This document shows positions 32,567 to 59,533 of a DNA stretch of 64,000 nucleotides, piece after piece. Position 1 is the stretch's first letter. Every line of letters begins with the position of its first letter. The stretch is from Candidatus Uhrbacteria bacterium CG10_big_fil_rev_8_21_14_0_10_48_16 (GTDB lineage Bacteria; Patescibacteriota; Patescibacteriia; UBA9934; GWF2-40-263), in contig PFEU01000008.1 of assembly GCA_002793515.1 (NCBI GenBank), positions 6,824-70,823 of the forward strand, written 5' to 3'. The translations under genes and the position numbers were made by a program. The notes below the pieces were generated by a model that saw only the letters and a program-made list of their open reading frames with translations, was not told the DNA's origin and ran no database searches.

Positions 32567-33874
32567 TTAAGACTCTCCCCGAAGAAAGAAGTGTGTCGTT
32601 TTTAACAGAATCAAAATATCAAAAAGAAAAGATCTATTCTTAATATAGTACAAATCATATTCAAACTTCATTTGAGAATCGACAACCGATCGTGCATACC
32701 GAAACTTAATCTGCGCCCACCCGGTAATTCCCGGCTTAATAAAATGGCGCACATGGTAGTACGGAATCTCCGCCTCTAATAAATCAACAAATACCGGACG
32801 TTCTGGTCGAGGGCCTACCAGACTGAGATCTCCTCGAAGGACATTTAACAACTGTGGAAGCTCGTCAAGATGCGTCTTGCGCAATATCCGCCCAACCGCT
32901 GTCACACGCGCATCTTGCTTCGTCGCCCAGGCAGGTCCGTTTGACTCTGCATCAACCCACATGGTTCGAAACTTGATAATCGAAAACAGTTTTCCATTCT
33001 TTCCCATGCGTTCTTGCGTATAAAAAACGGAGCCTCCATCGGAAAACTTAATGGCCGTCACAAGAACGAGCCATAGAGGAGCTGTTAACCCAAGGAGGAA
33101 TAACGAAACACTCACATCAAAAAACCGCTTCACGTGTTGATATAAACTCGCATCCTTCTCTTGAATATTTCGTAAAAACCATCGATGATCGACGGTCGAG
33201 AGCGGAATACGTTTTGCAAAGAGTTCATACGCTTGTGCGGTATCAAGAAAGATCACCCCTTTTCCAAGACAGGCATAAACCTGCTGAGCTCCAACGGGAT
33301 CGGATAAATTCACAGAAGGGAGAACAACCATGTTTAGCTTCTGTTCTTGAATATGAAAGGAAAGATGCTCGGCAGATCGCAACGGCACACACACATGTCC
33401 CAAATGCGTGCGATCACGAATCATCGACTGAAGTTCGTCTACCTCTTTATGACTCCCCACAACACCTATGACCAACGGAGCGATACGAGCCATGTTCGAA
33501 AAAAACACCCGTCTCCAAATCAAACTCAATATCCCAAACACAAGGACATGAAACAACAGAATCACTTTCGGAGAAATGCTTGAAAAAGAAATCGTATAAA
33601 AATAAAGGACCCCTACTAAAAAAGCTACGACAAGGGCAACGGAAAATTGACTCACTCGCTTGAGAGAAACGCGAGAAGATAATTCGTAGGCATCAAACAC
33701 ATAAAAAATCACAAACCAAATCAGGTACAAAAACGTGAATGCGGGAAGGTGTTGATAGACCACTCCCTCATCAAAATTCTCCCCAAAACGAACCATCAAG
33801 ACAAGGAACAATGAAACGTACATCAAAATCACGTCTCCGCTTAAAAGGATCAGTTTTTGCCCTCTAAAATCCAT
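32567..33874 (-). CDS. Polyprenyl-phosphate hexose-1-phosphate transferase (bacterial sugar transferase, WbaP/WcaJ-like initiating PGT)
   Basis: 435 aa, 4-5 N-terminal TM helices. C-terminal catalytic domain PLWLVLVTAIKFSDGGSVFYTQERMGKNGKLFSIIKFRTM…DELPQLLNVLRGDLSLVGPRPERP is the Bac_transf signature. Confidence 0.85.
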   Translation of the reverse strand: MDFRGQKLILLSGDVILMYVSLFLVLMVRFGENFDEGVVYQHLPAFTFLYLIWFVIFYVFDAYELSSRVSLKRVSQFSVALVVAFLVGVLYFYTISFSSISPKVILLFHVLVFGILSLIWRRVFFSNMARIAPLVIGVVGSHKEVDELQSMIRDRTHLGHVCVPLRSAEHLSFHIQEQKLNMVVLPSVNLSDPVGAQQVYACLGKGVIFLDTAQAYELFAKRIPLSTVDHRWFLRNIQEKDASLYQHVKRFFDVSVSLFLLGLTAPLWLVLVTAIKFSDGGSVFYTQERMGKNGKLFSIIKFRTMWVDAESNGPAWATKQDARVTAVGRILRKTHLDELPQLLNVLRGDLSLVGPRPERPVFVDLLEAEIPYYHVRHFIKPGITGWAQIKFRYARSVVDSQMKFEYDLYYIKNRSFLFDILILLKTTHFFLRGES

Positions 33875-33923
33875 ATGGGCTTATTGTGTGCTATTTTCAG
33901 ATACGTGTAAAATACACCCATCT

Positions 33924-34886
33924 ATGACCTCACAAACCATTCTCATCACGGGAGGTGCCGGTTTTATTGGCTCACACCTCGCCAAACGGCTTATTGAAGA
34001 GGGTCATGAGGTTATTATTATTGATAACTTCAATCCCTATTACGATCCTTCTTTAAAGGAGGCTCGTATCTCTCACCTCCTGAAAGATCTTCCTTACACC
34101 TTGTATCGGATCGACCTCGAGGACTTTGAGGCGGTTCAAAAGGTATTTGAAACACACGCCATTGATTTGATTGCCCACCAAGCCGCACAAGCAGGTGTTC
34201 GATATTCGATCGAAAATCCGCTTGTCTATGGACAAAGTAATCTCATAGGAACACTCAACCTCCTGGAGCTTGCAAAGCAATACCATATAAAAGGATTCAT
34301 CCTTGCGTCGAGCTCGTCTGTATACGGAGACGCAACCTCCTTTCCCATCAAAGAAACTGACGAAACAGACAAGCCGATTTCGTTATACGCAGCGACAAAA
34401 AAATCCTGCGAACTTCTTGCCTACTCCTATCACCATCTCTTTGAACTCCCTGTGACATGTCTACGGTACTTCACGGTCTACGGACCTTGGGGACGGCCAG
34501 ACATGGCGATCTTTTCTTTTACCAAATCCGCTTTTGAAGGAACACCGATCGATGTGTATGGCCAAGGAGACATGGCGAGAGACTTCACCTTCATCGACGA
34601 TCTCGTCGATGGCATCGTAAAAGCTCTTGAAAAACAACTCCCATGGGCCGTCCTAAATCTTGGCCGTGGCCAAGCCCAACCACTCATGGACTTTATTACA
34701 TCCATCGAAACGCATTCTGGAAAATCCCTTCAAAAAAACTTTTTAGACATGCAACCTGGTGATGTCCAAAAAACCTGGGCGGATATCACTCAAGCGAAAA
34801 CCCTTCTTTCATTTGAACCCAAGACTTCCATCGATGAGGGAGTTCAATCCTTTGTGACGTGGTACAAAAATTTCTATGACGTCTAA
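33924..34886 (+). CDS. NAD-dependent nucleotide-sugar epimerase (UDP-glucuronate 4-epimerase / CapI-like SDR)
   Basis: ILITGGAGFIGSHLAKRLIEEGHEVIIIDNFNPYYDPSLKEARI, a YxxxK catalytic region (YAATKKSCE), and the overall extended-SDR layout. The ORF-track start at 33888 is GTG and has been trimmed to the ATG at 33924. Confidence 0.8.
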   Translation: MTSQTILITGGAGFIGSHLAKRLIEEGHEVIIIDNFNPYYDPSLKEARISHLLKDLPYTLYRIDLEDFEAVQKVFETHAIDLIAHQAAQAGVRYSIENPLVYGQSNLIGTLNLLELAKQYHIKGFILASSSSVYGDATSFPIKETDETDKPISLYAATKKSCELLAYSYHHLFELPVTCLRYFTVYGPWGRPDMAIFSFTKSAFEGTPIDVYGQGDMARDFTFIDDLVDGIVKALEKQLPWAVLNLGRGQAQPLMDFITSIETHSGKSLQKNFLDMQPGDVQKTWADITQAKTLLSFEPKTSIDEGVQSFVTWYKNFYDV

Positions 34887-36000
34887 AAAGACAACGCGCA
34901 TCGCGGTCTTTTTTACCCATGGAGTCTCCTTAGAATTATGGGAACAGCGTGGAATGTTCTCACGAGAAGTGACCTTCTATGAAGAGCTCGCACGTGAGCT
35001 GGGAGAAGTGTGTTTCTTTACCTATGGTCGTAACGACGCACGGTTTGCTTCCAAACTTGGAACTCAAATTCGCCTCTTTCCAAAACGTCTCCCGGTCCCA
35101 AATCTCCTCTACGCCGTTCTTCTCCCCTTTCTCTACTGGAGGGAACTCTCACAGGTTCAAGCGCTTCGCATACACCAACTCGCCGGAGCGATCCCGGCAG
35201 TCATCACCCATTGGCTCATGTGCAAACCCCTGATTGTACGAGGAGGTTTTCAATGGCTCACCTTTGCTCGCAAACAAGGAGCCTCAAAACTCAAACAACG
35301 ATGTATTTCAATCATCGAACGTCTATCCTATCGGTCTGCAAACGTGATTATTCACACGACACAAGCGGATGCAACATTCGTTCAGAACCGATATGGCATT
35401 CACCCAGAAAAGATCCAGGTGATCCCAAACTATGTCGACACAGAGCTATTCAAACCAATGAACACACAAAAACACCCACAGAGTCTCTGTTATGTAGGAA
35501 GATTCGAAGAACAAAAAAATCTATTCAATCTCTTGGGCGCGATGGAAGGAAGCCAGATTCATCTTGTGCTCTACGGGGACGGATCTCTCAAATCTGAACT
35601 TGAGCATCGGGCAAAACAGTTAAACATCCATGCAAGTTTCATGGGGAGGATCGCAAATGAGGAACTTCCTTATGCCCTCAATACCTGTGAGGCATTTATC
35701 CTTCCTTCGTGGTACGAAGGAAATCCAAAAGTTCTTCTCGAAGCGATGTCCTGCGGGCTTCCCTGTATCGGCACCAACGTGGAAGGTATTGCGAGTTTGA
35801 TCAAAGATGGAGAAACCGGTCTCTTGTGCGACCCATCAAGTCCATCCATCGCACAGGCCATCCATACCCTCTTTGCCGATCAAGACTTCCGAAACCGACT
35901 GGGGTATACCGCACGTACACACATCCTTAAGAGTGTCTCTCTCACACAAGTCATTCAACGTGAATGCCCTTTCTACGATTCTCAACATGAACGCGTATGA
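34876..36000 (+). CDS. Glycosyltransferase family 4 (GT-B, retaining)
   Basis: C-terminal E-x7-E region PSWYEGNPKVLLEAMSCGLPCIGTNVEGIASLIKDGETGLL. ATG overlaps the upstream stop by 11 nt. Confidence 0.8.
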   Translation: MTSKKTTRIAVFFTHGVSLELWEQRGMFSREVTFYEELARELGEVCFFTYGRNDARFASKLGTQIRLFPKRLPVPNLLYAVLLPFLYWRELSQVQALRIHQLAGAIPAVITHWLMCKPLIVRGGFQWLTFARKQGASKLKQRCISIIERLSYRSANVIIHTTQADATFVQNRYGIHPEKIQVIPNYVDTELFKPMNTQKHPQSLCYVGRFEEQKNLFNLLGAMEGSQIHLVLYGDGSLKSELEHRAKQLNIHASFMGRIANEELPYALNTCEAFILPSWYEGNPKVLLEAMSCGLPCIGTNVEGIASLIKDGETGLLCDPSSPSIAQAIHTLFADQDFRNRLGYTARTHILKSVSLTQVIQRECPFYDSQHERV

Positions 36001-36629
36001 GCAAGCTTCTCCTCACCTTCGCCCTAACCCTCCACAGCTTTTCGTATAAACTCGCAAGTCGTCTTGCGATCTTTGCGGAAAACGGCTTGCATCCCAAACA
36101 TCGACTGATGAACTACCACCAGTTTTTTCTCGATCATATTCAGCCAGAAGATCGTGTCCTTGATATTGGATGTGGAAACGGCGCCCTAGCGTTTGATCTT
36201 GCGAAAAAAGCCACGCATGTGACCGGAATCGATCATAACGAAAAAAATCGTTCCACGTGGGAAGAGCGATTCGCTCGCAACAATCTCACCTATCTCGTTG
36301 CAGACGCAACAACATTCTCTCCAATAGAACCCTTCACCGTCATCGTGCTTTCCAATGTCCTTGAGCACATCGAACACCGATCCTCTTTTTTGAAATCCAT
36401 TACCCACCTTGCTCCCCTCTTTCTGATTCGTCTTCCTATGCTCAACCGTGACTGGATGACTCTCTACAAAAAAGAATTAGGACTCGAATACAGACTCGAC
36501 ACGACGCACTTTACCGAGTACACCCTAGAGACGTTTTCACAGGAAATGGCTGAAGCAGGACTCTCTATTCAATCTCTCTCCATTCAATTCGGTGAAATCT
36601 GGGCGGTCATACAATCCCCTCACACGTAG
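35997..36629 (+). CDS. Class I SAM-dependent methyltransferase
   Basis: VLDIGCGNGALAFDLAKKATHVTGIDHNE (motif I) and VIVLSNVLEHIE (motif II/III). The ATGA start overlaps the upstream stop. Confidence 0.7.
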   Translation: MSKLLLTFALTLHSFSYKLASRLAIFAENGLHPKHRLMNYHQFFLDHIQPEDRVLDIGCGNGALAFDLAKKATHVTGIDHNEKNRSTWEERFARNNLTYLVADATTFSPIEPFTVIVLSNVLEHIEHRSSFLKSITHLAPLFLIRLPMLNRDWMTLYKKELGLEYRLDTTHFTEYTLETFSQEMAEAGLSIQSLSIQFGEIWAVIQSPHT

Positions 36630-36632
36630 ATT

Positions 36633-37712
36633 ATGTTTGACTCCGTCAAAACAATGGTTCGAACCCTCGTAAAACGTTTCTTTAGTATTCCTAATCTTTG
36701 GAATAAGAACCACATCCATATTGTGACGGATGGCCATGATTGGGTCATTGGCGAAGTCTCAAAATTTCTTTCAACCGCCCTCTCTCAAAGAACCCTTGCA
36801 CAAGCCTCCATCAGTCCATTCTTCTACTTTCTCTCTGGAAAGGTCATCCATTTCAATTCCATCCCCGTCCCCCAACGTTTTCCAAAAAATAAGGTCATCA
36901 TGACGTGGTACCACATTCCAGAACACGACCCTCGGCTCTCAACACTAAGGGAACTTGAAGCACGTGTGGATCTCATTCATACATCAACACACTCCACAAA
37001 ACAGACCCTCGTTCAGCATGGATTCCCTCCAGAAAAAATTCTTGTGATCCCACAAGGAATTAACCTCACGCTATTCACTCCTGTATCGAAGGACCAGAAG
37101 AAAGAGATTCGAACGGCCCTAGGCATTCCTGAAAAGGCCTTCGTGATTGGTTCGTTTCAAAAAGATGGAGATGGTTGGGGGGAAGGGATGAACCCAAAGC
37201 TCATTAAAGGACCTGACGTGTTTTGTGATGTTGTTGAACAGCTCGCAAAAAAAATAGCGGTTCATGTGCTCTTAAGTGGCCCTTCTCGAGGATACGTCAA
37301 GGATCGACTGACGCGCGCCAACATTCCATTCACACACCAGTATCCAAAAGCATACAAAGACGTAAATCAGCTCTATCACGCCCTTGATGTCTATCTCATC
37401 TCTTCTCGCATAGAAGGAGTGCCGATGGCCCTGCTTGAATCGTGGGCAACAGGCATTCCGCTTGTCAGTACGCGTGTAGGAATGGTTCAAGACGTTGCCA
37501 AGCACGAATCAAACGCTCTTCTTGCGGATGTGGAGGATCGCGATAGGCTTGTTGGGCACATAGAAACCCTCTTTCACGATCATCATGTGAGAGACCATCT
37601 TGCACGCAATGGTCTTGAGTCCGTAAAAGCGTATGATTGGAGTGTCTTAATTGATAGATATTGGAAAGAACTCTACCAACCACTTCTTCGCAAGCCTTCC
37701 GTAAAGCACTAA
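36633..37712 (+). CDS. Glycosyltransferase family 4
   Basis: SSRIEGVPMALLESWATGIPLVSTRVGMVQDVAKHESNALLADVEDRDRL is the GT4 E-x7-E motif region. Confidence 0.75.
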   Translation: MFDSVKTMVRTLVKRFFSIPNLWNKNHIHIVTDGHDWVIGEVSKFLSTALSQRTLAQASISPFFYFLSGKVIHFNSIPVPQRFPKNKVIMTWYHIPEHDPRLSTLRELEARVDLIHTSTHSTKQTLVQHGFPPEKILVIPQGINLTLFTPVSKDQKKEIRTALGIPEKAFVIGSFQKDGDGWGEGMNPKLIKGPDVFCDVVEQLAKKIAVHVLLSGPSRGYVKDRLTRANIPFTHQYPKAYKDVNQLYHALDVYLISSRIEGVPMALLESWATGIPLVSTRVGMVQDVAKHESNALLADVEDRDRLVGHIETLFHDHHVRDHLARNGLESVKAYDWSVLIDRYWKELYQPLLRKPSVKH

Positions 37713-37732
37713 CGTTTCCGCATGTTGCGCAT

Positions 37733-38794: not shown

Positions 38795-39439
38795 ATGGAT
38801 CACATGCAACCGTCACAATATTTTTCCATGAAATATCTCTCGCTTCAGCGATGGAACTCTTATTGGTATCAATTATTTGAGACAACCCAGTGTCCGAATG
38901 TCAAAACCATTCTTGAGGTAGGGATTGGGAATACCATCTGCACGTCCGTTCTTCGAAATATGGGCTACACCGTCAAGACCCTAGATGCAGACCCAACAAC
39001 TCAGGCGGATTACGTAGCAGACATCCGAACAATTCAACAGACCGTTCATGAAACATTCGATCTCACCCTCTGTTGTCAAACACTCGAACATATTCCGTAC
39101 GAAGACGTCCCGGGTGTTCTCCGATCTTTTCACAAGATCACAAATACCTGGCTCATTGTCACCCTTCCCTACACTTCACTCGGCACATTTGCTCCACGCC
39201 TATTTCTCAAGCTCCTCCCGTTCATGAAACCCTTCAAATGGGTCCGCGTCTTTCCTTTTTTTCCAAAAGAACATCCATCGAAACTCCCTGGAGGGCATTA
39301 CTGGGAAATCGGAAAAAAAGGATATGCTCTCAAGACGATTCTTCAGCTATTCGACACGTGCGGATGGGATATCGTGAAGCACTACTCGCTCTTTGAGAAT
39401 CCTTACCACTACATGCTCGTGTGTAAAAAACGAACATAG
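38795..39439 (+). CDS. Class I SAM-dependent methyltransferase
   Basis: ILEVGIGNTICTSVLRNMGYTVKTLDADP is a glycine-rich SAM loop. 214 aa. Confidence 0.6.
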   Translation: MDHMQPSQYFSMKYLSLQRWNSYWYQLFETTQCPNVKTILEVGIGNTICTSVLRNMGYTVKTLDADPTTQADYVADIRTIQQTVHETFDLTLCCQTLEHIPYEDVPGVLRSFHKITNTWLIVTLPYTSLGTFAPRLFLKLLPFMKPFKWVRVFPFFPKEHPSKLPGGHYWEIGKKGYALKTILQLFDTCGWDIVKHYSLFENPYHYMLVCKKRT

Positions 39440-39519: not shown

Positions 39520-40335
39520 ATGGCTGAATACGTGATCAAACCCAAACGCCCCATCGGTCTTCATCTCAAAGAAATATGGCGATTTCGTGAGTTATTCTTA
39601 GCACTCACCGTCCGAGACATGAAGGTTCGTTATAAGCAAACGGCCATTGGCGTCCTCTGGGCTGTATTTCAACCGTTCATTCTCATGGTTGTCTTTACGA
39701 TTTTCTTTGGTCGCATCGCACAAATAAGCACCAATGGTGTTCCCTACCCGATCTTTGTCTATAGTGGCTTGTTGTTCTGGAACTATTTTTCAAATGCCTT
39801 AAGCGCCGCAAGTGGAAGCATGGTCGCCAACCAAGCGATCATTCAGAAAATCTATTTTCCTCGTATCATTTTGCCCACAGCTTCTGTTGTGGTGTTTTTG
39901 TTAGATTTTATTTTTTCATCCATCATCTTTGCTGGCCTCCTGATTTACTATCACGTCACACCAAACATCACCGGCCTCTTATTATTAGTTCCCATGCTAC
40001 TCATTACCACCCTCACGCTTCTTGGCATCGGATTATTTTTTTCTGCTGTGAACGTCAAGTACCGTGATGTCCGCTATGTCCTTCCATTCTTTATTCAACT
40101 CCTTCTTTTTGTGACTCCGGTCATCTACCCAGCTACGATTTTAGGAGAATATAAATGGTTGCTCTACCTCAATCCCATGTCTGGAGTCATTGATGTCTTC
40201 CGAAGTACGTTTTTGTCACTTGGTTCTATTTCATGGCCCCTATTTGGAAGTTCGATTCTTGTAAGCATCATCTTTTTTCTTGTTGGTCTTGCCTACTTCC
40301 AAAAAACAGAACGCTATTTCGCTGATCTTATTTAG
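39520..40335 (+). CDS. wzm: ABC-2 type polysaccharide/O-antigen exporter permease (Wzm/TagG family)
   Basis: 271 aa, 6 TM. N-terminal cytoplasmic helix plus ABC2_membrane features (RDMKVRYKQTAIGVLWAVFQP…). Confidence 0.85.
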   Translation: MAEYVIKPKRPIGLHLKEIWRFRELFLALTVRDMKVRYKQTAIGVLWAVFQPFILMVVFTIFFGRIAQISTNGVPYPIFVYSGLLFWNYFSNALSAASGSMVANQAIIQKIYFPRIILPTASVVVFLLDFIFSSIIFAGLLIYYHVTPNITGLLLLVPMLLITTLTLLGIGLFFSAVNVKYRDVRYVLPFFIQLLLFVTPVIYPATILGEYKWLLYLNPMSGVIDVFRSTFLSLGSISWPLFGSSILVSIIFFLVGLAYFQKTERYFADLI

Positions 40336-40336
40336 T

Positions 40337-41596
40337 ATGGATCCTATCATTCGCGTCGAACATCTCGGAAAAAAATATCGGATCAAACATACGCAAAAAG
40401 GCTATGTTGCTCTGCGTGACGTGGTAGCAAACCTCTTTTCTTGGCGTTACTGGTTTCGTTCATCAAAAAAAGAACAGGAAGATTTTTGGGCTCTCCAAGA
40501 CGTGAACTTTGAAGTCCAAAAGGGCGAAGTCCTTGGAATTATTGGAGCAAACGGTGCTGGAAAATCGACCCTCCTAAAAATCTTGTCGAGCATCACCCCA
40601 CCTACGAACGGGGAAGTTCACATGAATGGACGAGTCATCAGTCTTTTGGAAGTAGGCACAGGGTTCCATCCAGAGTTAACGGGGCGTGAAAATATTTATC
40701 TCAACGGAGCCATCCTCGGAATGACACGCAAAGAAATTGAACAGAAATTCGATGCCATTGTTGCTTTCTCAGGAGTTGAAACGTTTTTAGATACTCCGGT
40801 AAAACGATTTAGTAGCGGAATGCAGGTTCGATTAGCATTTGCGGTTGCGGCACATTTAGAACCAGATATTTTGATCATCGACGAAGTTCTTGCCGTCGGT
40901 GATGCATCGTTTCAAAAAAAGTGTTTAGGAAAAATGGAGGAGGTCACAAAACAAGATGGCCGAACGATTTTATTTGTGAGCCACAACATGGATGCCATTG
41001 CGAAACTCTGCCAACGTTCGTTACTGCTTGATCATGGAAAGGTGATCGCAGACGGGCCAACAGATGACGTCATTGCGCGCTACCTAAACAACCACGAACA
41101 AACGCGAGCAGAGGTCACACTCACCCCTCCAGAGACTCTCGATATTGCCATCCGTTCTATCGCGATTAAGAATGACCGTGGAGCACTCTCAAATCGACTC
41201 GAGACAGGAAAACCCTTTACGATCGAAATTGAATACGAACTCAAAAAAGACGCGCATGAGGTCTATGCAGGGGTTGCGTTTATTGATCTAAAGACACAAA
41301 TTTCTGTCTTGGACACACTTGATATCGATCAAAATAAGGACCACTATCCCTTGCGAAAAAAGGGAATGTATCGTTCACTATTCACGTTTCAAGAAAATCC
41401 GTTTAATCACGGAAGATATAAGCTCTTTGTGCATATCGGATCTTTCCCTGCCACACAAACCACTCTTCATCTATCTGACGGCGATCTCACCATAACCTTC
41501 GTTTCAGGAGAAACCTTTGCGACAGATGTTCTCGATGGCACACGAAACTCAACCATGCTCCTCAACATTCCCAGTGAGATTATAAAAATTGGTTAA
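40337..41596 (+). CDS. wzt: Polysaccharide ABC exporter ATP-binding protein (Wzt/TagH) with a C-terminal carbohydrate-binding (Wzt_C-like) extension
   Basis: Walker A GANGAGKST, ABC signature FSSGMQVRLAFAVA, Walker B ILIIDEVLAVGD. Then a C-terminal extension of about 170 aa (…TLTPPETLDIAIRSIAIKNDRGA…YKLFVHIGSF…TITFVSGETFATDV) predicted to be a beta-sandwich. The ORF-track start at 40280 is TTG; the ATG is at 40337. Confidence 0.85.
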   Translation: MDPIIRVEHLGKKYRIKHTQKGYVALRDVVANLFSWRYWFRSSKKEQEDFWALQDVNFEVQKGEVLGIIGANGAGKSTLLKILSSITPPTNGEVHMNGRVISLLEVGTGFHPELTGRENIYLNGAILGMTRKEIEQKFDAIVAFSGVETFLDTPVKRFSSGMQVRLAFAVAAHLEPDILIIDEVLAVGDASFQKKCLGKMEEVTKQDGRTILFVSHNMDAIAKLCQRSLLLDHGKVIADGPTDDVIARYLNNHEQTRAEVTLTPPETLDIAIRSIAIKNDRGALSNRLETGKPFTIEIEYELKKDAHEVYAGVAFIDLKTQISVLDTLDIDQNKDHYPLRKKGMYRSLFTFQENPFNHGRYKLFVHIGSFPATQTTLHLSDGDLTITFVSGETFATDVLDGTRNSTMLLNIPSEIIKIG

Positions 41597-51541: not shown

Positions 51542-53454
51542 CAACCTACTGTGCGATCGCCGAAACCCTTGAGGATCTTCGACAGATTCGAGCATGGGAG
51601 AAAAAGCACCATGCATCCGTTCATGTGATCGCCCTTTCTCTTGAAGTGCTCGCCGAAGACCCAACCGCAGAACACATTTGGAATCTCCTTCCCATGGACG
51701 ACATCCTCTTTGAATCCTACGAGACAACTCAGCGACTCGGAGGTCTTTGGAGCGAATCTGAAAATGATGAAGAGTCCCGCATGTACAAAGAGTCTCTTCG
51801 GTATCATTTAGTAGAAGAATGCTGGTTTCATGCGCACGTAAGTTTTTCCGTCGCATCGGCCCTTATTCCCCTCTTTCACGCCCGTCAGTGGACGCTTCTG
51901 ATTCCTCAGACAGACTCCTATTTCATTGGTCCCTACGCACCAAACTTTGCAACTGCAGGAAAACGAAATGCCATGTTCACATCGACCTGCATTTCTCTCT
52001 TTACCCAAGAGCATATTCCGATTCGTTATCTTGATATCAAAACGTCATGGATACACCTGTCTGCGAAGATCTCCCTCATGATTCAAGGCATCTCAAAAGT
52101 TCTTTTCGATGGGATTGATATTCTTCATGCTCGATGGGTTCGCAGACCAACTCTCCGCCAACAGCTCACACAGGTAAGCGCTTCTCAAACAATACAAATC
52201 CTCTTCTCGGGATGGGGGAAAGATTTCTCCCGCTTTTTTCGATACGATGTGTTTCGAAAACACGCGAAAGACGCATCTATACACATCACAAATCTTATCT
52301 GGAGAGCACAAAAAAATCCCCAGACCCATGAAGATGCATCAACCGGAGATTTTCAAGAAGTGATTTTAAAAGAAGATATTCGACAACATGTCACGTATGG
52401 CTTGCGCTTGTCGTTGTTTCCCCTCTCCGTCTTCTGGAAGCGCTTCTTGTTTCTCAAAAAAACAATTCCTTCTCTCAAAAAATCTATTCAAGTCCTCTCA
52501 CACGATTATCCGGTTCTTCAGAACCCAATCGTGCAAGCAAACTCCCTCCAAATCTGTCTGTTTGGGATGCATTCAATATTTCTAGGCGCATGGACTCTCG
52601 AACACACACGTAAAAAATATCCAACTCTGACAACCTATGTGGGTTCTGACAGTGGCGGAGTTGAGGAACGTTTTGAACTGTTATGGGCAAAACAACAAGG
52701 ATTAACAGCCTTCAGTATTCCTCATGGATTTTTCGCATTTGCTGAACAGCCTTATTGGTATCTCGCGGATCATCTTCTCACGCAGACATCAGCAACCGCA
52801 CAACTTCTTCAAGCCCTTGGACGACCTCGCTCGGAAATCTCAGTGGTAGGTGCATTTCTTCCACAACAAAAACCACACCTCCTCGACAACCGAAAAATTC
52901 GAATCGTCATCGGAACACGTTCTCGTCGAGGACTTTGGTCAAACATGAGCTCTAAACATCATCTCTATCACGAAACCATCCATACCCTCATAGACACATT
53001 ACTGAACGATGAACGATTTGAAATCATCATCAAGTCACATCCAAATGGAGATCTGAGTGAGTACTACGACACGCTTGTTGCACAGAAAAAACATGCACGA
53101 CTCTCGCATGTTTCCAAAGGATGGAAGTCTGATGTTTTTGTGAGTCAAACAGATGTTCTTGTCTGCCTGGGAGAGGCTCCAAGTCTTCTCCTAGATGCCC
53201 TGTATGCACGTGTTCCCATTGTCTTTATTGAAGGAACGATGACTCGCGTGCTACAAAACATGCACTATGATTACCAGCAGGTTGCCCGAGTGGTCTCGAA
53301 TGGAACGGAAGCAGTGAATGCCATTCTTGAGATGACAAAAGACCAGACCTCGTATGAAGAATCTCTTCTTCCTCAAAACACCATGCTCGAGCGGTATGCC
53401 TTAGGAACCCACCCTGAAAAACAACTCATTGAATCCCTCAAACGCTATGTCTAA
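51538..53454 (+). CDS. Hypothetical 638-aa protein; C-terminal domain resembles HP-motif GT-B-like capsule/nonulosonate/Kdo transferases (KpsC/KpsS or sialyltransferase-like). Assignment is tentative.
   Basis: C-terminal region IRIVIGTRSRR…ERFEIIIKSHPNGDLSEYYD…VLVCLGEAPSLLLDALYARVPIVFIEGTM contains a K-x-HP motif in a Rossmann-like context. No TM segments. Sits between the aminotransferase and a GT gene. Confidence 0.45.
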   Translation: MTTYCAIAETLEDLRQIRAWEKKHHASVHVIALSLEVLAEDPTAEHIWNLLPMDDILFESYETTQRLGGLWSESENDEESRMYKESLRYHLVEECWFHAHVSFSVASALIPLFHARQWTLLIPQTDSYFIGPYAPNFATAGKRNAMFTSTCISLFTQEHIPIRYLDIKTSWIHLSAKISLMIQGISKVLFDGIDILHARWVRRPTLRQQLTQVSASQTIQILFSGWGKDFSRFFRYDVFRKHAKDASIHITNLIWRAQKNPQTHEDASTGDFQEVILKEDIRQHVTYGLRLSLFPLSVFWKRFLFLKKTIPSLKKSIQVLSHDYPVLQNPIVQANSLQICLFGMHSIFLGAWTLEHTRKKYPTLTTYVGSDSGGVEERFELLWAKQQGLTAFSIPHGFFAFAEQPYWYLADHLLTQTSATAQLLQALGRPRSEISVVGAFLPQQKPHLLDNRKIRIVIGTRSRRGLWSNMSSKHHLYHETIHTLIDTLLNDERFEIIIKSHPNGDLSEYYDTLVAQKKHARLSHVSKGWKSDVFVSQTDVLVCLGEAPSLLLDALYARVPIVFIEGTMTRVLQNMHYDYQQVARVVSNGTEAVNAILEMTKDQTSYEESLLPQNTMLERYALGTHPEKQLIESLKRYV

Positions 53455-54559
53455 ACGTATTGCCTTCATTTTTACGGGCGGACGAAAAATCAAGCTCCCA
53501 GACATTCGCTCTGGTTCATCTCCAGAAGATTTTTTTTATGGAGCCCTCGAACTCCAGCGAAGAGGCTATGACATTGATTTTCTCGAGGATGCCGATTTCA
53601 ATTCGGTGAAACTTTCTCTTTGGAAGAGGATAAAAAATCGTATTCCCGTGAACTATCGGTTATTCGATGAAACGGCGATTGAACGCTTCCATTCGAAAAA
53701 AGCTCTGCAACGACTCAACCAGTATGACATCCTCATCACCACAAACAACTCAGACGGTCTTGCGTTAGCCTATCTCAAAAAACAAAAGAACCTACGCTCG
53801 TCCATTATTTTTCTTTCGATGTGTCCCATCAAACCCCCAGACTCTTGGGTGAAGAAAAGACGTATGGAGATCTACCTCAACGAAATGATCTGGGGAGTGG
53901 AGAATACCCATGAGATCGACTTCCTCAAACATCTCTACCCTTCAAAAAAGATGCAGATACACTACATTCCTTTTGGGGTGGATGAGACATTCTGGAAGCC
54001 AGGAAGGAACGTCGCAAATCCCCCCTATGTTCTGAGTATGGGAAATGATAGTGGACGCGATTTCAACACGCTCATCAACGCATGGAAACCAGAATACCCA
54101 ACACTCAAACTCATTACACGGAGACCCCTTCCCCCGCTTCCCCAGAACATCGAGCATATTCAAGGAGACTGGGCCAAACAATATCTGACAGATGAGGCCA
54201 TTCGTACCGCTATTCAAGAAAGTTTGTTTGTTATTATCCCGGTCAAAGAAACGCTTCTTGCATCAGGACCAAGTGTTGCCATGCAGACTATGGCGTGCCA
54301 AAAAGCCCTTATTATTAACAAAACGAAAGGCTTATGGGCTCCTCACCTTCTACAAGATGGGGTCAACTGCTTACTGCCTGACCTACGTGAGCCAAACGCA
54401 TTCGCGCAATCCATTGAATCTCTTCTGAATGATGAGTCATTCCGTGATACGATTGCTCAAGGTGGAAGAACACTCTTTTTAGAACACTTTACAGTCAGTT
54501 CGATTGCGGACAGACTCGAAAAACTCCTCCCTCTTGTAGACACAAAAACAGCATCTTGA
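53447..54559 (+). CDS. Glycosyltransferase (GT-B fold, group-1-like)
   Basis: C-terminal LFVIIPVKETLLASGPSVAMQTMACQKALIINKTKGLWAPHLLQDGVNCLLPDLREP resembles the GT4 donor-binding half. The ORF-track start at 53429 is TTG; the ATG is at 53447. Confidence 0.55.
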   Translation: MSKRIAFIFTGGRKIKLPDIRSGSSPEDFFYGALELQRRGYDIDFLEDADFNSVKLSLWKRIKNRIPVNYRLFDETAIERFHSKKALQRLNQYDILITTNNSDGLALAYLKKQKNLRSSIIFLSMCPIKPPDSWVKKRRMEIYLNEMIWGVENTHEIDFLKHLYPSKKMQIHYIPFGVDETFWKPGRNVANPPYVLSMGNDSGRDFNTLINAWKPEYPTLKLITRRPLPPLPQNIEHIQGDWAKQYLTDEAIRTAIQESLFVIIPVKETLLASGPSVAMQTMACQKALIINKTKGLWAPHLLQDGVNCLLPDLREPNAFAQSIESLLNDESFRDTIAQGGRTLFLEHFTVSSIADRLEKLLPLVDTKTAS

Positions 54560-54580: not shown

Positions 54581-55684
54581 ATGGTTCCTACCGATCCAGC
54601 TCACATTCTCAAGTCTCAAGACGTCGTAACTGGAGTCGCACGATTCCTTTCAAACCAACAGGATCCGCATGTTCCTGGATATGTTCGTTATTCTGCTTCG
54701 GGAGATCTCTTTTCTGATCATCAAAAAACAAACCTTGCGGGAAGTATCTTCGCCCTGAAACTCTACGCCATGCTTGGAGAGACAGACCAAAAACGCATCC
54801 AACCGATTGTCGATCGAGTCCTTTCCTTTCAGCGTCCTGACGGATCTTTCGCGGATCCATATGTCTGTAAAAAACGCTTCATTCGCAACACCCTCTCAAG
54901 CCTCAAACATAGAGACCTCTCAAATCTTGGAAACCAAAGTTATATCCGTGCAGAAACCAGGCAAGCCTATTCTGCCCTGCTCCTACACCACGTCCTCCCT
55001 CACAAGGTCGACGCAAACATTCCGACCACCCCACAAGCCATTCACACATTCTTATCCCGTCTGGACTGGACGCGACCCTGGGGCGCAGGAAGTCATTTTA
55101 GTCATCTTCTCTTTTTTCTTTCCCTCTTCAAGAAAACAAAAAAACTGACACAGGAGCAATACCTGGAAGCACGCTCAAGTGCCTGTACGTTTATCGCTTC
55201 CCTTCAACACGAAGACGGTGCCTGGTACACAGGAAATCCTTCTCATCGTCAAAAAGTAAATGGGGCAATGAAAGTCATCTCCGGACTGATTGTCGATGAT
55301 CTTCCCTTTGAACATCCTAAAGAGCTCATTAATCTTTGCTTAACCCAAGAAGCAACCCAGACCCATGATGCCTGCGACCAGATCAATCAAATTCTCGTTC
55401 TTCGTTATAGCACCCGATTACTCAATCACCCCTATCACCAAGAAGACATCAACACCTTTTGTCAGAACGCCCTCATACAGTGGGGGGCGTACTACTTTCC
55501 AGAGCATGGAGGATTTTCGTTTCATAAACACCGGGCAAACGATCGCTATTACTCAGCAAAGGTGAGCCAAGGCCTCAACGAACCAGACATCCATGGAACC
55601 ATTCTGTTTGTCTGGGGTTTAAGCATGATGAAACAACTCCTGCAGACAGAAAACCTTCCAAATTTCCATGAAATCAAGAGTTAA
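54581..55684 (+). CDS. Hypothetical protein with prenyltransferase/terpene-cyclase-like (alpha/alpha toroid) repeat motifs
   Basis: Recurrent Q/R-x-x-DG-[SA]-[FW] motifs (SFQRPDGSFADP, LQHEDGAWYTG, PEHGGFSFHK) spaced about 50-100 aa apart, as in squalene-cyclase/prenyltransferase repeats. Confidence 0.45.
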   Translation: MVPTDPAHILKSQDVVTGVARFLSNQQDPHVPGYVRYSASGDLFSDHQKTNLAGSIFALKLYAMLGETDQKRIQPIVDRVLSFQRPDGSFADPYVCKKRFIRNTLSSLKHRDLSNLGNQSYIRAETRQAYSALLLHHVLPHKVDANIPTTPQAIHTFLSRLDWTRPWGAGSHFSHLLFFLSLFKKTKKLTQEQYLEARSSACTFIASLQHEDGAWYTGNPSHRQKVNGAMKVISGLIVDDLPFEHPKELINLCLTQEATQTHDACDQINQILVLRYSTRLLNHPYHQEDINTFCQNALIQWGAYYFPEHGGFSFHKHRANDRYYSAKVSQGLNEPDIHGTILFVWGLSMMKQLLQTENLPNFHEIKS

Positions 55685-55703
55685 TCGTGTGCATCCACGC
55701 ACT

Positions 55704-56528
55704 ATGTCTATCAGCGTAATCATGTCCGTCTATAATGGCGAACGGTTTCTCCGTGACGCTGTGTTAAGTGTGCTCGATCAAACCTTTCACGATATTGAAT
55801 TGCTTGTCATCGATGATGCTTCAACGGATGGAACACTCCACCTCCTCGAGGAACTCGCCTCACGTGACTCCCGCATCCGCATCCTCACCAACTCGACGAA
55901 CCTGGGACTTACTAAGTCACTCAACCGTGCCCTTATGCACGCTCAAGGAGAGTTTATCGCCCGGCTGGACGCTGACGACATCGCCTTCCCTTCCCGACTC
56001 GAGAAACAACTCGCCTTCCTTGCCTCACATCCTGACATCGACATCGTGGGTACCGCCTACGAGTGGATCGACGAGCACGGCAACGTCATCGGTCGCCCAA
56101 ACGTCATCACCGACCCAGACGACATCCACCGGACGTTCCCACGCACCAACCCGCTCCTTCACAGCTCAGTCCTGATGCGCAGACACCTCCTTGATTCCAC
56201 AGGAGGATACGATGCGTCCTACAAAAAAGCCCAGGACTACGCGCTGTGGTTAAGACTTGCCCCCACCCACCGATTTGCAAATCTCCCTGAGATTCTCACA
56301 CAAAAACGTCTCAGCAAAGACATGCTCTCCTATGCGAGTGAGCGAAGTCAGCTTCGGTTCGCCGTCCGAGCACGCTATGAGGCACTTAGGCGCGGAGACT
56401 ACCCAATGTGGTATTTTATCTACATCTTGAAGCCGTTCATCGCCTCCATCCTTCCACGTGCTGTTGTTCGATGGATTCGGATTCACCTCTTTCATCAACG
56501 TCAGTATGAGCATCCAACCCTTCGATAA
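55704..56528 (+). CDS. Glycosyltransferase family 2
   Basis: MSISVIMSVYNGERFLRDAVLSVLDQTFHDIELLVIDDASTDGT…ARLDADDIAFPSRL is a classic GT-A/DxD signature. Confidence 0.85.
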   Translation: MSISVIMSVYNGERFLRDAVLSVLDQTFHDIELLVIDDASTDGTLHLLEELASRDSRIRILTNSTNLGLTKSLNRALMHAQGEFIARLDADDIAFPSRLEKQLAFLASHPDIDIVGTAYEWIDEHGNVIGRPNVITDPDDIHRTFPRTNPLLHSSVLMRRHLLDSTGGYDASYKKAQDYALWLRLAPTHRFANLPEILTQKRLSKDMLSYASERSQLRFAVRARYEALRRGDYPMWYFIYILKPFIASILPRAVVRWIRIHLFHQRQYEHPTLR

Positions 56529-58428
56529 GTATCTCACACGTGCATTGGGTCTCTTTGTGTTTCTTGCATTTCTCAGTCCCGTTTTTTTCTGGCCAACATT
56601 CTATGCTCCCTTCTCAAGTCTGACGCTGATCAGCTTTTTCTTTTGTGTAGAGATTGCTCTCCCATGCTATCTCCTTCTTTTGTCCCAGAAAAAACATCCC
56701 TTCGATGCATTTCATCACCCCGTCATTCGTGCAATCGCCCTTCTCATGCTTGTCATGATCCTTTCTTCCTTTGTTGGAGTAGACCCATTGAATAGTTTTC
56801 TTGGGACCATTGATCGTCCCGTGAGTGTTCTTGTCTACATCCACGGATTCCTTCTTCTTCTCTATACGCTTGAACTGTTCTCACGCGATGGGCGATGGAA
56901 AACACGGATCTCTCTTCTTATCATAAGCATAGCATCCGTCATCGCCTTGTACACCTTCGGAGAAGGGTGGCTATGGCCCACGTTTGTAACGTTTGAAGGG
57001 CGTACCGCAAGTCTCCTTGGAAGCCCGAATTATCTTGCGAGCTTCCTGATTCTCCCCACATTTTTGTCTATCGCCTATGCGTCAAACGTACACAAAAAAA
57101 TGCGACCCATTTTTTGGATGCTTGCCTTGAGCATGGTGATCGCCATCGTCTTATCAGGGACGCGTGGTGCCCTGCTTGGACTCATCGTAGGAGCTCTTAT
57201 CTTGGTAACCCCCTCTAGCTCCCCCTTAAAAAGGGGGAGGACCGGAGGTCTTGGCACCCGTGTCTCTAAAAGAATGCTCCTGGCGGGTCTGCTGACATTC
57301 CTCGGAGTGTTTCTGGTGTTCAGTGTGACGAATGTAAACTCGCTCATGGAACGCTTCACACAAACAACAGATGCAAATAGTTCTATGCGTCTCGTCTACT
57401 GGAACATGGCCGTTGAAGGCTGGAAGGAACACTCATTTCTTGGAGTCGGACCAGGAAATTTCTATACCATCGCAGACCCAGCGTTTACTCCCGATCTCTA
57501 TCAGCACACACACGCCTGGCCAGATAGCCCTCACAGCACCTTGTTCGAACGCCTCTCAACAACAGGACTTTTTGGACTATTTGCATGGTTCCTATTCCTC
57601 TTTTTCCTCATGCGCGCCCTGTGGCAACATCGTACACAGCCTGCCAACATCGCTCTTCTTGCGGGTATCATCGCGTACCTCGTTCAGGGATTATTCTTCT
57701 TCGACGGGATAAGTGATTTCATTCTGTTTCTCTTCGTCATTGCATGGACCTGTACATCCACCCCCTCAACCACCCATCAGGAACACCGATCTCCCTCTTT
57801 CCTCCTGGGAGGCGCTGGAGGGGTTCTTGCTCTCACAGGAATCTTCTTTCTCATCCTCCCCTTGCGCACAGAAGTTGCTCTGGCAGGAAAACAGCTTCTC
57901 CCTCAACAACAGATCATCATCGACGACCTGCTCATTTCTCAAACCGCTTTTGAACGTGCCACAACCTTGAACACGACACAGGACCCCGCTCACGTTCAGG
58001 AAGCCATAGACCTCTATGTCGAGAGTCTCGATCGTCACCCTCTCCGACAACAAGCCTGGAATGACCTCGCTTGGCTTTACTACATTCAAGCGTTCCTCCA
58101 ACAGACCATCGTGAGTGAAGAAGGAATCCTTTCGGCACAAAGAGCGATCCAACTTGCTCCCGGACGAATAGAAGCCACATCAACCCTTACGCAAATGCTC
58201 TTGCACACAGCTACCATTGCCTCAGAACAACAGCAGTACCCTCTCCTCATTGAGACTTACCTCTCGCTCATTGAACTTCAGCCGACGACGTATTCCTACC
58301 TTGCAAATCTTGCGACAAGTTACGCTCTTAATGGACAGATCGAAGAAGCGATCACAACAGCCAATACCCTAAAGCACCTTGACCCCCAGAGCACAGAATC
58401 CGTAAATGCCTTTTTAGAGAGCTTGTAA
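56506..58428 (+). CDS. Wzy_C (O-antigen ligase/polymerase-like) membrane protein fused to C-terminal TPR repeats
   Basis: About 11 TM helices; Wzy_C core LSGTRGALLGLIVGALILV. The C-terminal 200 aa are helical TPR-like (…WNDLAWLYYIQAF…LANLATSYALNGQIEEAI…). The ORF-track start at 56458 is GTG; the ATG is at 56506. Confidence 0.7.
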   Translation: MSIQPFDKYLTRALGLFVFLAFLSPVFFWPTFYAPFSSLTLISFFFCVEIALPCYLLLLSQKKHPFDAFHHPVIRAIALLMLVMILSSFVGVDPLNSFLGTIDRPVSVLVYIHGFLLLLYTLELFSRDGRWKTRISLLIISIASVIALYTFGEGWLWPTFVTFEGRTASLLGSPNYLASFLILPTFLSIAYASNVHKKMRPIFWMLALSMVIAIVLSGTRGALLGLIVGALILVTPSSSPLKRGRTGGLGTRVSKRMLLAGLLTFLGVFLVFSVTNVNSLMERFTQTTDANSSMRLVYWNMAVEGWKEHSFLGVGPGNFYTIADPAFTPDLYQHTHAWPDSPHSTLFERLSTTGLFGLFAWFLFLFFLMRALWQHRTQPANIALLAGIIAYLVQGLFFFDGISDFILFLFVIAWTCTSTPSTTHQEHRSPSFLLGGAGGVLALTGIFFLILPLRTEVALAGKQLLPQQQIIIDDLLISQTAFERATTLNTTQDPAHVQEAIDLYVESLDRHPLRQQAWNDLAWLYYIQAFLQQTIVSEEGILSAQRAIQLAPGRIEATSTLTQMLLHTATIASEQQQYPLLIETYLSLIELQPTTYSYLANLATSYALNGQIEEAITTANTLKHLDPQSTESVNAFLESL

Positions 58429-58429
58429 T

Positions 58430-59533
58430 ATGCGCATCTTTTTCTTCATCACAAAATCTGAACAAGGCGGAGCGCAAACACATGTCGCTCAACTCGCACG
58501 ATTTTTTATCTCACGTAACGATGACGTGATGATCATGAGCGCTCCAGGAGGATGGCTTGAAAAAGAAGCTCAAAAGATGGGAGCTTCTTTTGCGCCAAAT
58601 GCGTTTCTTGGAAATTCCGCAAATCCCCTACGGCTTGTTCGAGCCACACAACGCCTCTCTCAGGCCCTGAAAAGCTTTCGCCCTGATCTTGTCACGTGTC
58701 ACAGCACCGTCGCCGGACTCATCGGAAGGTTCTTCATCCGCAACCGCATCCCAACGATTTTTACCGCTCATGGGTGGGGCTTCACACAAGGAGCTCCGTG
58801 GCTCAGACGACGTCTCCTTCCTTTTCTCGAACGTCTCGCCGGTCGTTTTTCCTCCCAGATTATTTGTGTTTCGCACAATGACCTAGATCTTGCTCAACGT
58901 CAGCACATCGCCCCAAACAACACCCTCACTCTCATTCACAATGGGGTTGAGCTCCAAGCAGAGTCTCTCAAAAAACCTTCAGACGTCGTACACATCTTTT
59001 TCGTCGGACGATTAGCTCCTCCCAAAATTCCATCTCTCCTTCTAACCGCATTCTCACAGCTTGACCCTGAACTTCAACACCGCACACACATCACCATCAT
59101 CGGAAATGGACCTGACACACATCAACTTGCGTTAGACATTCAGTCGCACAACTTGAGCGGTTTCGTTGAACTGGCTGGAGCTCTGCCTCACGACCAAGTC
59201 CTCGAACGCCTCAAAGCGGAAGCGGATCTCTTTGTCTTGTTATCAAATTGGGAAGGGTTCCCCTATTCGATCTTAGAAGCGATGAGCGCAGGTGTTCCGG
59301 TGATTGCTTCTCGTGTTGGTGGCATTCCAGAAGCCCTCGCCTACGGAGGAGGAATCCTTATCGATAATCATGATCCCGATCAGATCACACGTGCGCTTGC
59401 ACAACTCATTCACGATCCATCCCTGCGGAGCTCGATGGGGATCACCGCACAACAATCGGTGCACGATCACTTTTCTCTTGAACAGATGTGTCAGCAAACA
59501 CTCGCGGTGTATCACAAGACTCTGTTACAATAG
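58430..59533 (+). CDS. Glycosyltransferase family 4
   Basis: LSNWEGFPYSILEAMSAGVPVIASRVGGIPEAL…GGILIDNHDP is the GT4 E-x7-E region. N-terminal MRIFFFITKSEQGGAQTHV. Confidence 0.85.
   Translation: MRIFFFITKSEQGGAQTHVAQLARFFISRNDDVMIMSAPGGWLEKEAQKMGASFAPNAFLGNSANPLRLVRATQRLSQALKSFRPDLVTCHSTVAGLIGRFFIRNRIPTIFTAHGWGFTQGAPWLRRRLLPFLERLAGRFSSQIICVSHNDLDLAQRQHIAPNNTLTLIHNGVELQAESLKKPSDVVHIFFVGRLAPPKIPSLLLTAFSQLDPELQHRTHITIIGNGPDTHQLALDIQSHNLSGFVELAGALPHDQVLERLKAEADLFVLLSNWEGFPYSILEAMSAGVPVIASRVGGIPEALAYGGGILIDNHDPDQITRALAQLIHDPSLRSSMGITAQQSVHDHFSLEQMCQQTLAVYHKTLLQ

Follow-up and report, generated by a model that had tools for sequence, protein, structure and literature searches.

S-layer glycan (slg) gene clusters, such as those of Geobacillus stearothermophilus NRS 2004/3a and Paenibacillus alvei CCM 2051T, use a WbaP-type priming enzyme despite export by an ATP-binding cassette (ABC) transporter, Wzm/Wzt, together with a 2-O-methyl cap that is thought to be read by Wzt and an O-oligosaccharyltransferase of the Wzy_C family; a C-terminal TPR domain is present in WsfB and PglL (PMC2943079). 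These clusters are the nearest described system to the ~27-kb surface-glycan locus reported here, which lies at positions 32567-59533 of a 64-kb stretch of DNA (the window) from an uncultivated groundwater member of Candidatus Uhrbacteria, within the Parcubacteria group of the Candidate Phyla Radiation (CPR; Patescibacteria). By exact-sequence look-up, ArgRS, NusA, NeuB, Gmd, the phosphoglycosyltransferase, and a 638-aa protein were assigned to Candidatus Uhrbacteria bacterium CG10_big_fil_rev_8_21_14_0_10_48_16. Counterparts of all four hallmarks were found here at the domain level, O-methylation being the proposed chain cap, and the likeness extends to a probably monoderm-type host, soluble glycosyltransferases, and tightly packed, overlapping open reading frames (ORFs). 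Unlike the slg clusters, the locus encodes six separate methyltransferases rather than one methyltransferase domain fused in WsaE, points to GDP-mannose-derived and CMP-ulosonic sugars rather than dTDP-rhamnose, and belongs to a CPR host with no recognizable S-layer protein gene; several of its genes have no family.

The combination of Wzm with a Wzt that carries a C-terminal carbohydrate-binding domain is also shared with the systems for capped O-antigens of Escherichia coli O8/O9a (WbdD) and of Klebsiella O12 and Raoultella terrigena (WbbB), in which the cap is a methyl or methyl-phosphate group and a terminal beta-Kdo, respectively (PMC3482155, PMC9445017, PMC9587256). By analogy, a methyltransferase, and possibly the ulosonic acid, may act as the non-reducing-end terminator here. 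Those O-antigens differ in belonging to diderm lipopolysaccharide (LPS), with WecA as the priming enzyme and WaaL as the ligase that joins the chain to lipid A-core, and neither a WbdD-like kinase or coiled coil nor a GT99 module was detected in the locus described here. The locus as a whole keeps to a familiar design. Its unusual features, namely the methyltransferase load, a NeuB cassette that contains a dehydrogenase, and a GT-B family with a K-S-H-P motif, may lead to new enzymology but do not make it a system of a new kind; the cassette and the GT-B family are candidate new enzymology that reaches well beyond Candidatus Uhrbacteria.

Gene content and proposed assembly pathway

The ORF listing places a minus-strand phosphoglycosyltransferase gene at one end of the locus, divergent from an array of 26 plus-strand genes (33924-59533). 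Every ORF was scanned with Pfam and NCBIfam profiles, and scores were judged against the cutoff of each model. An earlier, sequence-only reading of this DNA had described an ABC-transporter-dependent glycan locus unusually rich in S-adenosylmethionine (SAM) methyltransferases; the profile searches upheld that description, and its gene inventory proved essentially right, with almost every call backed, coordinates included. In the list below, the longest-ORF starts at 33888, 37661, 40280, 50390, and 53429 have been replaced by the probable starts 33924, 37733, 40337, 50438, and 53447.

32567..33874 (minus): initiating polyprenyl-phosphate hexose-1-phosphate transferase of the WbaP/WsaP type (Bac_transf, 224 bits)
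33924..34886 (plus): GalE-like nucleoside diphosphate-sugar epimerase/dehydratase of the short-chain dehydrogenase/reductase (SDR) type (Epimerase, 203 bits; galE model 189.9 bits, below its cutoff of 262.3)
34876..36000 (plus): glycosyltransferase GT4a (Glycos_transf_1, 124.9 bits; passes no equivalog cutoff)
35997..36629 (plus): methyltransferase MT1, 210 amino acids (aa) (Methyltransf_23/25/11 at 51-59 bits; motif I VLDIGCGNG)
36633..37712 (plus): glycosyltransferase GT4b (Glycos_transf_1, 68 bits; 41% identity to the homologue on contig L007)
37733..38782 (plus): divergent GT4-like protein GT4c (Glycos_transf_1, 26.8 bits, cutoff 26.4; 46% identity to the L007 homologue)
38795..39439 (plus): methyltransferase MT2, 214 aa (Methyltransf_23, 30.7 bits, cutoff 27)
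39520..40335 (plus): Wzm, ABC-2 permease (ABC2_membrane, 68.1 bits; five hydrophobic segments)
40337..41596 (plus): Wzt ATPase with a C-terminal Wzt_C carbohydrate-binding domain (ABC_tran, 89 bits)
41602..42651 (plus): methyltransferase MT3, 349 aa, between wzt and neuB (Methyltransf_23, 76.8 bits, residues 127-287)
42667..43725 (plus): NeuB-family ulosonic-acid synthase with a SAF domain (Pfam NeuB, 245.9 bits)
43735..44487 (plus): sugar O-methyltransferase of the TylF/MycF/NovP type (TylF, 80.4 bits)
44530..45252 (plus): CMP-ulosonic-acid synthetase (CTP_transf_3, 89.5 bits)
45258..46199 (plus): D-2-hydroxyacid dehydrogenase resembling phosphoglycerate dehydrogenase (PGDH) (2-Hacid_dh_C, 165.9 bits)
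46209..46853 (plus): small GT2-like protein, 214 aa, without a DxD motif (Glycos_transf_2, 71.1 bits)
46859..47698 (plus): 279-aa protein, linked to the methyltransferase at 49689 (no Pfam or NCBIfam match)
47707..48708 (plus): Gmd, GDP-mannose 4,6-dehydratase (TIGR01472, 458.8 bits, above the equivalog cutoff of 415)
48712..49098 (plus): 128-aa protein, possibly a cupin (WbuC-cupin, 19.9 bits, E 5e-4, cutoff 42)
49100..49675 (plus): short methyltransferase MT5, ~191 aa (Methyltransf_11, 31.1 bits)
49689..50453 (plus): methyltransferase MT6, 254 aa (Methyltransf_31/23/11 at 62-69 bits)
50438..51541 (plus): DegT-family aminotransferase, closest to GDP-perosamine synthase (DegT, 325 bits)
51538..53454 (plus): rare, divergent GT-B-fold enzyme, 638 aa, with a K-S-H-P motif; candidate transferase for a CMP-linked donor
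53447..54559 (plus): divergent GT4-like protein GT4d (Glyco_trans_1_4, 25.7 bits, and Glycos_transf_1, 24.7 bits, both below cutoff; 33% identity to the L007 homologue)
54581..55684 (plus): soluble protein of 367 aa whose repeats resemble those of prenyltransferases/terpene cyclases (Prenyltrans, 23.2 bits, short of the 26.5 cutoff)
55668..56528 (plus): canonical GT2 (Glycos_transf_2, 119.1 bits; LDADD motif)
56458..58428 (plus): polytopic protein of the Wzy_C (O-antigen-ligase/O-oligosaccharyltransferase) family with C-terminal TPR (Wzy_C, 72.8 bits, plus TPR)
58430..59533 (plus): glycosyltransferase GT4e, the last gene of the locus (Glycos_transf_1, 131.2 bits; Glyco_transf_4, 90 bits)

On balance, we favor the view that this locus specifies a polyprenol-linked heteropolysaccharide assembled by an ABC-dependent route in a CPR cell, as a counterpart of the Gram-positive slg clusters. 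The order of events proposed here, from priming to transfer, is taken from the analogy with S-layer glycan clusters. The phosphoglycosyltransferase would prime undecaprenyl phosphate with hexose-1-phosphate, and cytoplasmic glycosyltransferases would then extend the chain from a perosamine-like, possibly methylated, GDP-4-amino-4,6-dideoxyhexose and from an O-methylated, CMP-activated 3-deoxy-2-ulosonic acid. Growth would stop once the non-reducing end is methylated and/or carries the ulosonic acid, a cap that the C-terminal domain of Wzt would recognize; the finished lipid-linked chain would then be exported by Wzm/Wzt, and the Wzy_C-TPR protein would transfer it outside the membrane to an acceptor, most likely a surface protein.

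The initiating transferase exceeded the cutoff of TIGR03025 (326.9 versus 295.55 bits) and combined five hydrophobic segments with a C-terminal Bac_transf domain. Wzt passed the cutoff for PF14524 (Wzt_C, 38.5 versus 30.4 bits) and its gene lies 1 nt from wzm, and no Polysacc_synt match indicative of a Wzx flippase was found among the locus genes scanned with Pfam. The Wzy_C-TPR protein, whose gene may start at the ATG at 56506, had 12 hydrophobic segments; the only PDB match of its Wzy_C part was a WaaL structure (7tpg; weak, E 1.4e-4), and evidence at the domain level does not separate an oligosaccharyltransferase from WaaL or Wzy activity. The 64 kb hold three polytopic, possibly Wzy_C-like proteins in all (1992-3260, minus; 19603-22110, minus; 56458-58428, plus). 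The first, of 422 aa, matched Pfam Wzy_C at 70.1 bits, while the second, of 835 aa, had 11 hydrophobic segments and TPR with no Pfam Wzy_C match; it has the TPR region in common with the Wzy_C-TPR protein of the locus, and a match at the GxGPG loop was weak and non-significant (E 0.022).

Candidate acceptors lie directly upstream. One is a secreted protein of 2124 aa with abundant T, G, A, and S (22730-29104, minus), which matched nothing in Pfam or NCBIfam, and three small proteins, secreted or anchored, that bear cohesin, dockerin, and TSP3 domains (29267-32472, minus) abut the initiating transferase; profile scans of these adjacent secreted proteins gave no match to SLH or an S-layer family. 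They may be targets of glycosylation, or else build a cohesin-dockerin assembly on the CPR cell surface. CPR genomes are estimated at ~1 Mb, of which 27 kb would be a few percent, a share implying that the glycan matters to the cell, plausibly in host attachment, phage evasion, or surface hydrophobicity. If the scheme is right, surface proteins should bear O-methyl sugars, a 4-amino-4,6-dideoxyhexose, and an O-methyl ulosonic acid, and a domain of Wzt should read the cap.

A GDP-aminodeoxyhexose module had been proposed for the locus, and this was borne out: Gmd scored above its equivalog cutoff and the DegT aminotransferase was nearest to perosamine synthases, its top PDB matches being the perosamine synthetases 3dr7, 3bn1, and 3dr4 (E 1e-59 to 7e-59), with LegC/PseC models also scoring 224-245 bits. 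The intervening 128-aa protein had been called an FdtA-like cupin, a call that found no backing in Pfam, NCBIfam, or PDB: no FdtA or QdtA match was obtained, the sole signal was the subthreshold one to WbuC-cupin, Pfam returned nothing even at E<=5, and sequence and profile searches returned no PDB match. A homologue search recovered only two relatives of this protein. The block of Gmd, the 128-aa protein, the short methyltransferase, and DegT was conserved in the related contig L090. Because Gmd passed its cutoff, DegT has these relatives, and the four-gene block is conserved, the product is probably an amino-deoxyhexose that resembles perosamine but is further modified. Gmd with a perosamine-synthetase-like aminotransferase recalls the GDP-perosamine pathway of Caulobacter crescentus and Vibrio cholerae O1; here, by contrast, the 128-aa protein and the short methyltransferase sit between the two genes and no N-acyltransferase is encoded in the locus. 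The final amino sugar may be an isomer and/or a methylated derivative of perosamine.

Six class-I SAM methyltransferases (35997, 38795, 41602, 43735, 49100, and 49689) each combined a profile match with motif I. The seventh that had been counted, at 7191-7745, was ruled out as a member of the locus: it lies 25 kb away, and genes for ValRS, ArgRS, bactofilin, tRNAs, and surface proteins intervene. The six calls themselves survived the profile search, none reaching the equivalog cutoff of an rRNA, tRNA, ubiquinone, or other small-molecule methyltransferase. With six such genes among 27, the locus clearly exceeds the methyltransferase density of ~1-2% that would be expected, a rough estimate rather than a computed value. 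MT3 carries an N-terminal CxxC...CxxC extension, its cysteine pairs being visible in the sequence; it was considered as a WbdD-like terminator, which found no support in PDB, where its similarity covered the generic methyltransferase core only. MT5 matched just the distal half of the Methyltransf_11 model and retains motif I as LHLGCG. On contigs L091 (1458-3020) and L092 (1003-2565), homologues of the 279-aa protein (N-terminal) and of MT6 (C-terminal) are joined in a single 520-aa protein, and the two homologues adjoin on L090; MT6 therefore belongs with the 279-aa protein and not with the Gmd block. Of the two methyltransferases that had been placed in that block, then, the one at 49100 stays, being part of the block conserved in L090, but the one at 49689 goes with 46859. 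The 279-aa protein also has a homologue on L007. A stretch reading "VFVDNSG" suggested a cryptic GT2 by eye, an idea not supported by hhalign, which returned a probability of 0.07% against a GT2 alignment. As a guess by analogy, the 279-aa protein and MT6 might form a WsaE-like terminator that pairs a glycosyltransferase with a methyltransferase.

Besides the GT-B enzyme, the glycosyltransferases comprised five firm assignments (three GT4 and two GT2-type) and two marginal GT4-like proteins. In the small GT2-like protein at 46209, the DxD position reads LSAHC, and the CPR-like orthologues have LSAH(C/A), versus LD(A/G)DD in canonical GT2 enzymes. The 367-aa protein, with squalene-cyclase-like QxxDG(S/A)(F/W) repeats (e.g., QxxDGSF/DGAW) seen in its sequence, was conserved alongside the ulosonic-acid cassette described below on L007 (38%) and L091 (54%) and has no obvious part in glycan assembly.

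Several metagenome contigs of independent origin, from JGI and ENA, carry the same gene order, and the locus is therefore not an assembly artifact. Recent horizontal transfer found no support, the GC content of 0.42-0.53 per gene matching that of the flanks (~0.45). Within the plus-strand array the widest intergenic gap was 80 nt and there were seven overlaps, including those previously quoted at 34876, 35997, and 51538, which are real; the two widest gaps (80 and 42 nt) precede wzm and neuA. Genes packed in this way could be co-transcribed and translationally coupled, possibly as a single operon. No Shine-Dalgarno-like purine-rich motif was found in the 25 nt before the start of any of the 27 locus genes (33875-59540), and many of these starts are preceded by a pyrimidine-rich stretch. 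A scan of the locus for consensus promoters and terminators gave counts at or below shuffled expectation and was uninformative.

The ulosonic-acid cassette and the 638-aa GT-B protein

The sequence-only reading had also proposed a nonulosonic-acid module leading to a sialic-acid-like cap. A NeuB-family synthase and a CMP-transferase are indeed present, but a sialic-acid-like product is more than these genes support: scores fell below the cutoffs and no precursor enzymes are encoded in the locus. NeuB (42667) was below the equivalog cutoffs of both NeuB_NnaB (308.8 versus 399.65 bits) and PseI (214.4 versus 340.25 bits); its best PDB matches were NeuB/SiaC and SpsE, and it was roughly equidistant from Neisseria NeuB and Bacillus SpsE, with PseI further away. 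Likewise, the cytidylyltransferase (44530) reached 162.8 bits with the PseF model, below the cutoff of 205.7. Profile scans of the locus found no NeuC, PseB/C/H/G, LegB/C/H/G, or acetyltransferase of any kind. A non-amino ulosonic acid is favored because enzymes for amino-sugar precursors are lacking in the locus, and O-methylation is assigned to the TylF-type enzyme (43735) because its solved relatives (CalS11, MycF, and NovP in PDB) are all sugar O-methyltransferases; the predicted product is thus probably a Kdn- or Kdo-like acid that is O-methylated by this enzyme. The neighboring dehydrogenase (45258), with PGDH (1wwk) as its best PDB match, retains the NAD motif GxGxxG as well as the catalytic Arg and His motifs (SRG and TPH). 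Once linked to CMP, an ulosonate offers a dehydrogenase no free 2-keto or 2-hydroxy acid group to act on.

These genes form a set that recurs around TylF homologues in contigs of CPR-like bacteria, Planctomycetota, Bacteroidota, and Gammaproteobacteria: a NeuB-like gene, TylF, CTP_transf_3, and the 2-hydroxyacid dehydrogenase, together with a GT2-type gene. The cassette was found in CPR-like contigs (L007 and L090), in Phycisphaerae (L008/L011), in Planctomycetaceae (L010), on an unassigned 481-kb contig (L009), in a Bacteroidetes single-cell genome (L012), in Thiohalocapsa (L013), and in Chromatiales (L019). In the Planctomycetaceae contig, the cytidylyltransferase and the dehydrogenase form one fusion protein (578 aa; 6145-7881). 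On this contig and in Thiohalocapsa, a canonical GT2 is joined to a second cytidylyltransferase domain (L010, 8598-9980; L013, 12817-14208), and these fusions adjoin TylF genes and short NeuB-like genes without a SAF domain. The best TylF match among GTDB representative genomes, a search that did not recover the locus of the source species, was 49% identical, and a search for TylF-type orthologues on annotated plasmids gave matches of <=28% identity only, none of them informative. Past the cassette, the Phycisphaerae metagenome-assembled genome GCA_016782885 (L008, 4494-14194) encodes a phosphoenolpyruvate (PEP)-mutase-nucleotidyltransferase fusion, an Fe-ADH, two B12-radical-SAM enzymes, an APS kinase, and a sulfotransferase, which points to phosphonate and sulfate groups on the same glycan.

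The cassette resembles NeuBAC, PseBCHGIF, LegBCHGIF, and the Bacillus subtilis sps genes in placing a PEP-condensing synthase of the NeuB family beside CTP_transf_3, and departs from these nonulosonic pathways in its conserved partners, which are instead a PGDH-like dehydrogenase, a TylF O-methyltransferase, and a GT2-type protein. Full-text literature searches found no description of a cassette of NeuB, 2-hydroxyacid dehydrogenase, and methyltransferase, and nothing on CPR nonulosonic acids. A bolder proposal, which we put forward tentatively and hold to be improbable as it stands, is that the set encodes an uncharacterized, widespread ulosonic-acid pathway whose product, a new O-methylated acidic sugar distinct from Neu, Leg, Pse, Kdn, and Kdo, would be installed by a new glycosyltransferase family and decorate surface proteins; the installing enzyme would be either of two candidates, the 638-aa KSHP GT-B protein or the DxD-less GT-A protein. 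If true, that product would be the first concrete handle on the chemistry of the CPR envelope, the formation and structure of which "remain unclear" (PMC5220378).

The 638-aa protein belongs to a rare family, with 3 matches in a 5.8-billion word-indexed set and 52 representatives among 1.84 billion. Its AlphaFold2 (AF2) model, built on a 33-sequence alignment, reached a pLDDT of 93.2 and a pTM of 0.93 and replaced an earlier and poor model from 4 sequences (pLDDT 58). In this alignment K499 and H501 were invariant, S500, P502, and H396 were conserved in >=90%, and D371 and T460 in >=80%; R461 reached 90% only among the 21 closest sequences. No Pfam family was found in the 33 members beyond stray GT4 matches. 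Bacterial sialyltransferases are marked by an HP motif that binds CMP-Neu5Ac in their nucleotide-binding domain (PMC2169525), and they share such a motif with beta-Kdo transferases (PMC10148158). The 638-aa protein resembles the GT38/52/80 sialyltransferases, beta-Kdo transferases, and TagF/TarL in its GT-B fold and in the conserved H-P within its C-terminal Rossmann domain, and its conserved Asp lies ~130 residues upstream of H-P, the spacing reported for GT38/52 (PMC2169525, PMC10148158). The D/E-D/E-G motif is not literal in the protein, which reads G-S-D-S at that place with only D371 conserved. It does not belong by sequence to GT38/52/80, GT99/107, or Glyphos_transf, and it carries ~360 extra N-terminal residues with long helices. 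The family adjoins cassette genes in all four contexts recovered (the window, L007, L090, and L091/L092). Because of the HP motif and this neighborhood, a transferase for the CMP-ulosonate is ranked first among its possible functions, an assignment for which we judge the case to be evenly balanced. A divergent NeuC-like hydrolyzing epimerase that would feed NeuB ranks second, and a TagF-like polymerase ranks third. UDP-GlcNAc 2-epimerases and NeuC score as well against this protein as the HP-motif transferases do.

Competing explanations

Several points weigh against a protein-linked glycan made by a single ABC-dependent pathway. Scans of the window recognized no S-layer protein, and no WbdD-like kinase, coiled coil, or WsaE-like fusion was found that could act as terminator. 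The 2-hydroxyacid dehydrogenase has no explained role in the scheme, five of the six methyltransferases have no assigned substrate, and L007, which shares many genes with this locus, has a Wzx-type flippase and no ABC transporter in its 20 kb. Moreover, a lipid or peptidoglycan acceptor would be equally compatible with the Wzy_C protein, and the array could serve more than one glycan.

An acceptor of that other kind is what a wall-teichoic-acid-like or secondary cell-wall polymer would have: a chain exported in TagGH-like fashion and attached to peptidoglycan or lipid, with the 638-aa protein as a TagF/TarL-like polymerase. We regard this as unlikely, given that Pfam found no LCP (LytR-CpsA-Psr) ligase, CDP-glycerol or CDP-ribitol synthase, or Glyphos_transf match in the locus, that a Wzy_C-TPR protein is encoded instead, and that the sole CMP-activating enzyme is of the ulosonic-acid type. 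A mosaic, in which the 26-gene array serves two or more glycoconjugates that merely share a strand, would account for the reordering of three units (NeuB-TylF-NeuA with the dehydrogenase; Gmd with the 128-aa gene, methyltransferase, and DegT; and the 279-aa gene with MT6) on L007, L090, and L091, including alongside a Wzx flippase, and would agree with the widest gaps falling before wzm and neuA and with the presence of three Wzy_C-like membrane proteins in the window. As an example, an ABC-exported methylated polymer (33924-42651) might be made next to a separate ulosonic-acid/perosamine oligosaccharide transferred by one of those three proteins. Against such a division stand the single initiating transferase and single exporter of the locus, block junctions of only 5-15 nt, and a consensus scan that found no convincing internal terminators, and we hold it to be distinctly unlikely. 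Highly improbable is a classical LPS O-antigen locus of a diderm, with the Wzy_C-TPR protein as a WaaL ligase acting on lipid A-core, for although Wzm/Wzt with Wzt_C, methyltransferases, Gmd/Per, and Wzy_C make up a set typical of E. coli O8/O9a, Klebsiella, and Vibrio clusters, and the Wzy_C part has WaaL as its sole PDB match, no lpx, kds, or lpt gene occurs in the 64-kb window, the YidC encoded there is of the short, 243-aa form, ABC-dependent O-antigens are normally WecA-primed and not WbaP-type (PMC2943079), and a monoderm-type surface glycan is the better framing because the host is a Candidatus Uhrbacteria (Patescibacteria) and the CPR genomes studied so far are without lipid A/LPS genes (PMC5220378).

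Flanking genes and other features of the window

The left border of the locus is formed by the secreted cohesin/dockerin/TSP3 proteins and the 2124-aa secreted protein, and the right border by a gene of the CCA-adding/polyA-polymerase family, two tRNAs, a pseudouridine synthase, and a guanylate kinase. The CCA-adding/polyA-polymerase-family gene (59540-60898, plus) begins 6 nt past the last glycosyltransferase on the same strand and may be co-transcribed with the glycan array. Further to the right, ARAGORN identified a tRNA-Ile with a genomically encoded TAT anticodon (61861-61937, minus; Rfam tRNA, 74.5 bits); in most bacteria AUA is read by a lysidine-modified CAU tRNA, and no tilS gene is visible in the window. 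On the other side of the locus, a 766-aa lipoprotein-like protein (15962-18262, plus) is rich in D and G and combines FG-GAP repeats with MopE-type metal-binding motifs; its gene gives rise to a local GC spike of 0.57-0.62 against the background of 0.45.

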